Below, piece after piece: positions 16,520-19,700 of a stretch of DNA of 64,000 bases. The stretch comes from Narcine bancroftii. Lineage: Eukaryota. Both the position numbers and the translations under genes were made by a program. Under the pieces are notes generated by a model. It was not told the DNA's origin, did not search any database, and saw only the letters and a program-made list of their open reading frames with translations. The stretch spans positions 68,262,001 through 68,326,000 of the forward strand of contig NC_091469.1 of NCBI RefSeq assembly GCF_036971445.1, written 5' to 3'. Position 1 is the first letter of the stretch, and each line of letters begins with the position of its first letter.

Positions 16520-16765
16520 GGTGACAGGTCCTGCCTATTGAGAGCAGACCACCCACCTCGAAGACCGCGCTGCTTAATAGAAACAGGCATGTAATTGTGA
16601 GACCTTCCAGCACACAGCAGAATGACTTCAACCTAGCAGGATTATTACAATCCCTGTTCCTTTAAAATCATTTATTATTTGTAAAAAAAAAATACCCATT
16701 AGCTCTTGAAAATATCACGCAAAGCAAGACTACCACGATCATACAGGGGAGTCTCGAGAAAGATG
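16520..16765 (+). other. ptch1: putative alternative first exon of ptch1 (homologue of the human upstream exon 1A/1C region); start uncertain
   Basis: 16570-16601 CTGCTTAATAGAAACAGGCATGTAATTGTGAG reads LLNRNRHVIV, matching the recalled human L' N-terminus MELLNRNRLVIV. Strong donor ATG|GTAAGT at 16765/16766 is in phase with exon 2. Confidence 0.65.
16547..16555 (+). promoter_or_regulatory. consensus GLI-binding site (distal 2)
   Basis: Exact GACCACCCA, 34 bp from the first site and in the opposite orientation. Confidence 0.8.
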
Positions 16766-19700
16766 GTAAGTAAAGTTACCTTTGATTACAAGGCACAGAG
16801 ACCGCGGAGCTCTTGGAGTGAACTCTTGGCAGATGGAACAAGATCGTTGTGTTACTGATACAGTTATTTTAGCCTCTGCTTCTGTTGCTAACAGTGGGAT
16901 TATTTTGGTTGGGTGGTGTAACAGCGATGATATAGGATCCAAGGTGATTTTGCTGTTTGATTGTATTCGAAATGCGCATTTGGTTTAACTGGTTGCTGAC
17001 TGGACAGGCGAGTTAATGGAAAAGGTGACAGAGCTAGGGGTCCTGAGGATCCCTCGAACTCATTTTCACGCTCCAAGAGGTCACCCCCAGCTTCCGTTCG
17101 GCGCAATTCTTATAGAGATGCACCTCTGGGACAAAAAGAATTCTCTGATCGAGCTGTCTCCAAGCAGGCGGGGGTAGGGGGGGGGGGGGGGAGACATCTA
17201 TATATCCCTCAATTGAACTTCTGGAAGTAGCATGGCGTGCCGTATGATTGGTTTTCTTTCATCCACACTGAAGAGATCACAAATATCGTACTTTTTTATT
17301 TGCTTTATTTCCAACAATTTACACTTAAGTGCTACTTAAATCAGGGTCTGTACAGTGAGTCGTCGATCAAATTAATTCAAAACGTGACTTATAAACCAGA
17401 GTGAATCCCCATAAGGAAAATAAAGCTTCTTAAAATCGTTTAATTCGGATCAAAGACTGAAGTATAAAATGAAACTTGATTATATTTAAAGCGTGGCTAT
17501 TTGGGGGGAAAAAAAACCTTCTGTCATGAAAACGAGAGTTGGAAATCGACGCCTATAAATGGAAATCTTTAGCTTTTTACATTTTCGCTTACTTTTCCCT
17601 CTCATTCTTCCACCCCCCCCCCCCCCGCACTCTTTATATTTTGCTGGTAATAGTCCTATTGAGTGATGTAGGCGTGAGGTGTAAACCGGATTAGCAGAGT
17701 CAAAGGGTGAGTACAATGAGGCGGAATTGTTTTACTTCCTTTCATTTCTCACGCCTATATATCTAATAAATTTGTTGCTACAGCAGTAGGTCAAAGGATC
17801 GTGTCGCCAATCGTGTTCGACAAGACGTGATGCTAGGCTGTCAAATGAATGGCCCCTGAAATGATTAAATTTACTTACTGAAAGCAGAATTGTGTGAGTT
17901 TGTCGATGTATATTTGTCTGTGTTCTATCCGTAATTTGGTATCCATGCTCTGGGCAGCACGCAATGCATTTCTCTTTCAGCTCGATCAGGGGTAATTAGT
18001 TGCATTATTTTGACAGTTTTTGTGAGGAGTGCTTTTCCCCCCATCGTGTGTGGGAGAAGCAGAGGGGAGGCTTGACATATTGAAACCAGTTACAAGAAAA
18101 ACTACTGTGTGCTGTGTTTGAAGATTAAAGCACATTGGAGGACAACGTCAGCTTCAGTTGAAAAATCTGTTAACTGAAATTAGTTCAAAGAAAATTGAAA
18201 ACATCTTTCACAAACTGACCAAACTTTATTAATTCGTCTTGGCAAAATCAGCAACGTTGAAGTGTAAAATCTGTTGCATTTTAGAAGTGCATTCGGGTAC
18301 GTACAGTGATCTGAAACTAAGGTAGTCAGTGTATGAACACACTCAAATGCAGCTAAACTTTTCATATGTGTGTATATCTTTTCTCAATCATATCTGGTCG
18401 TTTCAACAGAGACCCCAAGATACACTTAGTAGGAACTCAAAAATAACGTAGAAAATCCTACTTCATCCATGTATATTGTAATCGTAAATGGGTTGAGTGA
18501 TTCATGTCAATCAGAGGGTAATTTATAGAGCCTGTGCTTCTTATAGCTTTTGGCGCCATGTCTGCTTAGAAATAAATAGAGGCTCTAAACCACGAAGTTA
18601 AAAAACCTGTACTTGTTGGATTTGGAAAAGTTTACAGTGAGATGTGATGTCCGAGTGTGTCACGGATGTATACCACTTTCTCCATTTAACAGAAAAAAAG
18701 ATAATGAAATGCATTAAAATCTATAGACTAGTGGTTGCAAGGACAAAGGAGCTGAATGTCAGAGTAGTGTAGATGGTTAGATCGATGGATGAATGGGTGG
18801 AAATATTTAATGTAAATAAGTTATGTCAAAATGCACGTTATTTTTTTTAAATCTAATCAACTGGCTAGATTACTAAAACTTATGCCAAAACAGTAAAAAA
18901 GATGTAACAATTTCTGTCATTGTAAATCATTAAAACACGGTGGAGTTCACCAATTCAGTTAATGATGTTGAACAAAGAAAAATGAAACAATGCAGGTAAT
19001 TGGATTATATATGATCCACCCAACCATCACCTTAAATGAGAAATAACAGAATAAAGTTAATATTTGTGCATAAGGTAATCCCTGCTATCCTTTTAATGGC
19101 AATACACACCTAACATTTGATGCAATATAAATTTCTGTTGCAGAAGCAAAGGGCATCAAATAAAGTTGATTAAATTTATTTGCAAAAAAAAGATTCTGAT
19201 GAATATGGGGAGACCATAATGATTTGTTGAAGTTAACCCAACCGGTCGTCGAACGCCGTTTACAAGAACAAGGCATGCATATTAAAGTCAACAATGCTTC
19301 CAAATGTAAATAAGGCTAGATTGATTACGAACAACATTATCACTTCGGAATGGAACACTCGCATGCATTAGTAATGAGGCAAATTGAGGGCATCCATAGC
19401 TGGCCACCCAGGTTGAAGGTTTGCGCTCACACTTCTTCCTTTCTCTGGAGTCATACATAAGCAAGGCAATTGCATGCCAAATGTACTCTGTCTCTTCCCC
19501 ATGCTTTTAAAGCAGTTAACTTTGGAGAATAAGATTAAAATTAACTATCAATGCAAGCATGTTACGTTAGAATAGAGCAACCACCCACAATATATTTGAG
19601 TTTTGATATCTGTTTTTAAATAATACGACATTTAGTGCATATTTTATAATCTAACCAAAGTAACTTTTGATTGATGGTAGATGAAATATGATAGTTTCCC

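Follow-up and report, generated by a model that had tools for sequence, protein, structure and literature searches.

Does the ptch1 gene of the ray Narcine bancroftii possess, several kilobases above its canonical first exon, an alternative first exon that codes for nothing but the initiator methionine? An original prediction placed such an exon at position 16763, where an ATG abuts a splice donor, and proposed that it yields a GLI-inducible Patched1 with a shortened N-terminus, an isoform older than the divergence between cartilaginous and bony fish. We addressed this in a window of 64,000 nucleotides, the whole stretch of DNA that was analysed, and all positions below refer to it.

The gene in the window is ptch1, from N. 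bancroftii or a very near relative. Translations of exon 1b and exon 2 are identical to the N. bancroftii protein XP_069785467.1 (60/60 and 64/64 residues, respectively), and those of another two, later exons are likewise 100% identical to it; lower identity in the remaining exon alignments is probably due to overrun at exon edges. Because exon 2 matches patched homolog 1 proteins at 88–100% identity and PTCH2-like proteins at about 62–72%, the gene was assigned to PTCH1 and not to PTCH2. Assembly gaps (N runs) occur at 560–705 and 49732–49901; the stretch from the upstream exon to exon 2 is free of them. Intron 2 spans 24636–50305 (about 25.7 kb), and its GC content reaches 52% at 30–31 kb, where the conserved enhancer reported for intron 2 in fish and mammals might lie. 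The features that define the proposed splicing event are as follows:

16763..16765, + strand: initiator ATG, the sole coding triplet of the proposed upstream first exon (sequence; start of RefSeq XP_069785477.1)
16766..16771, + strand: consensus 5′ splice donor GTAAGT, phase 0 (sequence motif, predicted use)
16766–24443, + strand: predicted intron of 7678 nt that skips exon 1b (donor and acceptor sequence)
23143..23322, + strand: canonical exon 1b, coding part (60 aa), in place of which the Met-only exon would be used (60/60 identity with XP_069785467.1)
24444..24636, + strand: exon 2 (193 nt), with an acceptor common to both forms, coding for GKATGRK... and TM1 (64/64 identity)

The anatomy of the predicted start is borne out by the sequence. 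The ATG lies directly on the donor, has A at −3 (position 16760) and is located 6.4 kb above the exon-1b ATG and 7.7 kb above exon 2, the acceptor of which comprises a pyrimidine tract followed by an AG ending at 24443. As had been proposed, exon 2 opens in phase 0 with GGA, which places G at +4 once it is joined to the ATG, and the join reads MGKATGRK with no stop. The ATG at 16763 is not extendable upstream because an in-frame stop occurs at 16700. The expected loss of the 60-aa cytoplasmic N-terminus stood in part: all 60 exon-1b residues are gone, but the cytoplasmic N-terminus is shortened by no more than these, with about 34 residues still preceding TM1 in the short form. TM1 itself is kept, as anticipated (best hydrophobic 19-mer at residues 35–53 of the short form). 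Beyond its methionine the short form is identical to the long form and, judged by sequence, is predicted to be a full receptor.

RefSeq already holds this product for N. bancroftii: XP_069785477.1 (patched homolog 1 isoform X2, 1375 aa) equals Met followed by XP_069785467.1 from residue 61, although it is a computed gene model and protein records leave the source exon of the ATG unspecified. The same relation between long and short proteins holds in all ten pairs tested, nine from cartilaginous fish and one from chum salmon. Across cartilaginous fish, 13 of the 48 named records listed have an M-GKATG start; they come from 13 different species out of 21, both rays and sharks, a count from which one teleost fragment was dropped and to which one cluster contributed 15 of 28 members. 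The other eight listed species showed no M-GKATG record, and the matches listed included no chimaera or lamprey protein. Two transcript-assembly proteins also start with M-GKATG: P0002 (436 aa, from a contig of 1691 nt), which matches a little-skate RefSeq protein at 435/435 residues, and P0121 (567 aa, from a contig of 2509 nt). Both derive from spliced sequence, since the exons span 38 kb in the window.

Other N-termini occur in the same group of fish. Six cartilaginous-fish records (P0135, P0147, P0155, P0156, P0157 and P0162) start at an exon-3 methionine (MFNPQ) and in this resemble the mammalian short form that lacks TM1; the three N-terminal classes of PTCH1 may all be old. Two catshark RefSeq isoforms (P0138 and P0145) begin with MVLVW ahead of exon 2. 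A mini-exon of this catshark type was rejected for the ray, as MVLVW had no upstream match within the window.

Outside cartilaginous fish, the M-GKATG start is found in three salmonids (chum salmon, lake whitefish and Arctic char), in birds and in mammals, where the salmonid, bird and mammal clusters were selected since their representatives had this start. Among the mammalian records is human NP_001341848.1, a 183-aa isoform, which matches the MGKATGRK start that the original prediction had given for a human isoform. The product of human and mouse exon 1a (1C), PTCH1-1C, is what we take to be RefSeq ‘isoform M’. Of 58 proteins listed for clusters of non-salmonid teleosts, snakes and frogs, several of them fragments, none has an exact M-GKATG start, and a snailfish model has Met directly before GKATG, behind a 37-residue extension. 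PTCH2 was used as a control: none of 120 PTCH2-like cluster representatives starts with M-GKATG, compared with 5 of 120 for PTCH1, and Met directly on exon 2 was found in 0 of 204 PTCH2-like proteins (teleost and sturgeon only). An origin of the exon before the PTCH1/PTCH2 duplication found no support among these 204 teleost and sturgeon proteins. A single hypothetical Patched fragment from a cockroach (P0263) starts with MGKATG; this model is likely a predictor artefact, and it indicates that gene predictors can yield such a start unaided.

Could the ATG-donor at 16763 be a product of chance? The motif ATGGTRAG has three + strand copies in the 24.4 kb that precede exon 2 (at 11860, 16763 and 20745), all with the identical 9-mer ATGGTAAGT, and 300 dinucleotide shuffles of the same 24.4 kb contained a mean of 0.96 copies, with at least one copy in 63% of them. 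By itself the motif is weak evidence; its context exceeds chance. Three perfect GLI 9-mers are present in the 24.4 kb, compared with a shuffle mean of 0.12, and two of these lie 208–260 nt upstream of ATG 16763. Even one perfect GLI site no more than 300 nt upstream of such a donor was obtained in 0 of 300 shuffles. The elements immediately upstream of the ATG are:

16504..16512, − strand: perfect GLI consensus site, GACCACCCA (sequence motif, predicted site)
16547..16555, + strand: perfect GLI consensus site in the opposite orientation, 34 nt from the first (sequence motif, predicted site)
16491..16636, + strand: three short upstream ORFs, of 16 aa from 16491, 1 aa from 16589 and 4 aa from 16622 (ORF scan)
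16570..16614, + strand: conserved block, non-coding in the ray (11/15 match to residues 3–17 of a squirrel and bat PTCH1 N-terminus)

The 500 nt before 16763 hold 16 CpGs and no TATA box. All three upstream ORFs end before the main ATG and might damp its translation if they lie inside the transcript, and no conserved RNA structure was detected in 16540–16765 (z +0.51). The ATG-donor at 11860 has A at −3 as well, and the 500 nt preceding it contain 1 CpG at 30% GC; the one at 20745 has T at −3 and 30% GC. Neither of these two is accompanied by a perfect GLI site or by sequence resembling the product of the mammalian upstream exon, and both, together with a weaker donor at 1143, were rejected as the source exon on sequence context. 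A CACGTG E-box at 16512–16517 overlaps the first GLI site at its edge. A GLI site with one mismatch is located 145 nt inside the intron, at 16910–16918.

Homology to the mammalian upstream exon was assessed through protein comparison. One squirrel and two bat PTCH1 records begin with MELLNRNR, a reading of the upstream exon, and this N-terminus is presumably that of isoform L′/1Ckid. Its residues 3–17 are identical to the translation of 16570–16614 at 11 of 15 positions, the best match in the window, with an E value of 2e-4 under PAM30 short-query settings vs 0.25 under defaults and for a likeness that had been spotted by eye beforehand. The distance from the start of the block to the donor is 196 nt in the ray; the corresponding distances derived for squirrel and bat are 195 and 186 nt. 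A coding role for the block was rejected in the ray, where its frame has no ATG, meets a stop at 16663 and runs one base out of frame with exon 2, and for the same reasons an isoform of the L′/1Ckid type cannot be made there. The MELLNRNR N-terminus was found in three mammalian records only and, used as a query among proteins of 570–2000 aa, returned one match, from a bat. The findings suggest that the mammalian N-terminus is recent and is read from older non-coding sequence. The block also contains TAAT cores.

The long isoform has GLI sites of its own. The exon-1b promoter region contains a one-mismatch GLI site at 22305–22313 and, 312 nt away, a perfect site at 22617–22625, which sits 526 nt above the exon-1b ATG. 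This pair mirrors human BS1 and BS2, which are described in the available part of PMC2830928 as an essential and a helper GLI site located 329 nt apart upstream of exon 1B. Judged by eye, the sequence flanking the perfect ray site matches the human primers given there. In the accessible text of a second study, conservation between fish and mammals is stated for this GLI site of the exon-1b promoter (PMC3828767). The promoter of the long isoform is probably GLI-responsive too, as far as its motifs indicate; because it carries its own GLI site, GLI inducibility would not be specific to one isoform.

Table S6 of PMC3828767, within the portion available, lists a Gli-bound mouse region that lies 6.1–9.4 kb above the 5′ end annotated for Ptch1, is given as conserved in mammals and fish and has no peak in fish, and from its position we infer that this region is exon 1a. 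The same portion reports four ptch1 peaks in zebrafish Gli2a ChIP–seq, none of them upstream beyond −600 bp and thus none at the region that probably matches the ray upstream exon, and describes fish ptch2 as a stronger Hedgehog responder than ptch1.

The region around 16763 might be chiefly a conserved GLI-bound enhancer for the exon-1b promoter, with the Met-only transcript a minor by-product that gives little protein and has no role of its own. Two perfect GLI sites beside a conserved non-coding block fit this reading, as do the three upstream ATGs that precede the main one, the many distributed Gli-bound enhancers that control mouse Ptch1 (PMC4887206, available text) and the mammalian 1C product, which in the accessible part of a review is less inhibitory than 1B and expressed below exons 1 and 1A (PMC10363645). 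However, an ATG that is in phase, abuts a perfect donor and has A at −3 and G at +4, together with records of the same protein start from sharks and rays, salmonids, birds and mammals, would be hard to maintain without selection on translation, and two transcript assemblies carry this start. We consider the enhancer reading unlikely.

A further two readings accept the short isoform and dispute its source or its age, and to both we assign a very low probability. The initiator could come from another exon (11860, 20745 or one outside the window), leaving 16763 as a chance motif beside a GLI element, and this is allowed for by the ATG-donor 9-mer, which is present above exon 2 in three identical copies, with A at −3 also at 11860. 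The rival donors nevertheless sit in AT-rich surroundings (30% GC at both, 1 CpG in 500 nt at 11860), 20745 has T at −3, and neither has a nearby perfect GLI site or a mammalian upstream-exon match. Alternatively, Met-only first exons could have arisen independently in cartilaginous fish, salmonids and amniotes, which is feasible because, with exon 2 beginning in phase 0 on a G, an ATG-GT anywhere upstream would be sufficient. The patchy annotation (0 of 58 in the listed non-salmonid teleost, snake and frog clusters) and the cockroach model sharing the MGKATG start are compatible with repeated origin, but the ray exon shares both the block and its spacing with the mammalian upstream exon, and PTCH2, whose exon 2 begins alike in fish, shows no such start in 204 proteins.

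The reading that we prefer, and regard as likely, is that the ATG-donor at 16763 marks an upstream alternative ptch1 first exon that is spliced to exon 2, is driven by Hedgehog/GLI and gives a short-tailed Patched1. Its components can be graded separately. We are highly confident that the exon is real and orthologous to mammalian exon 1a/1C, and consider it very probable that it is ancestral to jawed vertebrates; we lean, with more reserve, towards its being Hedgehog-inducible in the ray, a property predicted from the presence of the motifs and from the mammalian literature. In the proposed mechanism, Hedgehog-activated GLI would bind both perfect sites and drive a second promoter beside that of exon 1b, the resulting transcript would skip exon 1b and join exon 2, and translation would start at the ATG whose +4 G comes from exon 2. 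The 60 exon-1b residues would thereby be replaced by one methionine, and the 1375-aa product, retaining all transmembrane segments, would add to Hedgehog negative feedback. The exon probably originated on the PTCH1 copy, before the lineages of cartilaginous and bony fish diverged, and the early date originally proposed for the short isoform is well supported by annotation (13 of 21 cartilaginous-fish species, salmonids, birds and mammals) together with the homology of the block.

The isoform is known already, as it has been described in mammals and its protein is in RefSeq for N. bancroftii, and the mechanism is not a new one. In the open-licence literature, no description of the exon or the isoform in cartilaginous fish was found among the matches listed. 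What is possibly new is the dating, together with the hint of recruitment for the MELLNRNR N-terminus. The dating places an isoform of a human tumour-suppressor receptor that has received little study before the cartilaginous/bony fish split, and this speaks for selection on the isoform and against mammalian transcript noise. Alleles or variants confined to exon 1b would be bypassed by the short isoform. More tentatively, and as a proposal that we hold to be rather doubtful, the Met-only exon could be a PTCH1-specific feedback module of jawed vertebrates, maintained throughout the history of the group because the Patched1 that lacks the exon-1b tail has a function beyond the reach of the long form (altered stability or trafficking), and the 45-nt block could be regulatory sequence that was later recruited de novo as MELLNRNR coding sequence in some mammals.

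The mammalian system with which the ray exon is best compared is summarized here from the available parts of the papers cited. Five PTCH1 first exons are recognized, of which 1a is the same as 1C, exon 1C carries an ATG and Hedgehog signalling up-regulates 1B and 1C; the product of 1C is a weaker inhibitor of the pathway than that of 1B and is expressed below exons 1 and 1A (PMC10363645). Exon 1C is located >9 kb upstream of exon 2 and is spliced to exon 2 or 3, and first-exon knockouts are described as leaky (review, PMC3449132). First-exon isoforms differ in stability and in inhibition (PMC10167241), 1Ckid is reported as present in human and not in mouse (PMC2386930), and three Gli sites are reported for mouse exons 1a–1e (PMC4496206).

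Teleost and sturgeon PTCH2 has the same exon-1/exon-2 protein boundary as PTCH1 but lacks the Met-on-exon-2 start (0 of 204). The MELLNRNR N-terminus of mammals resembles the ray block over residues 3–17, whereas the ray has no open frame from the block into exon 2. Hedgehog induction is reported for mammals in the accessible text of a review (PMC10363645) and, in the ray, is predicted from motifs. Like human and mouse exon 1a/1C, the ray exon is the most upstream first exon, carries an ATG, lies kilobases above exon 2 (across an intron of 7.7 kb, compared with >9 kb in mammals), has GLI sites nearby and has a sequence block in common with its mammalian counterpart, and its predicted protein start, MGKATGRK, is that of human NP_001341848.1, a record of a 183-aa isoform.
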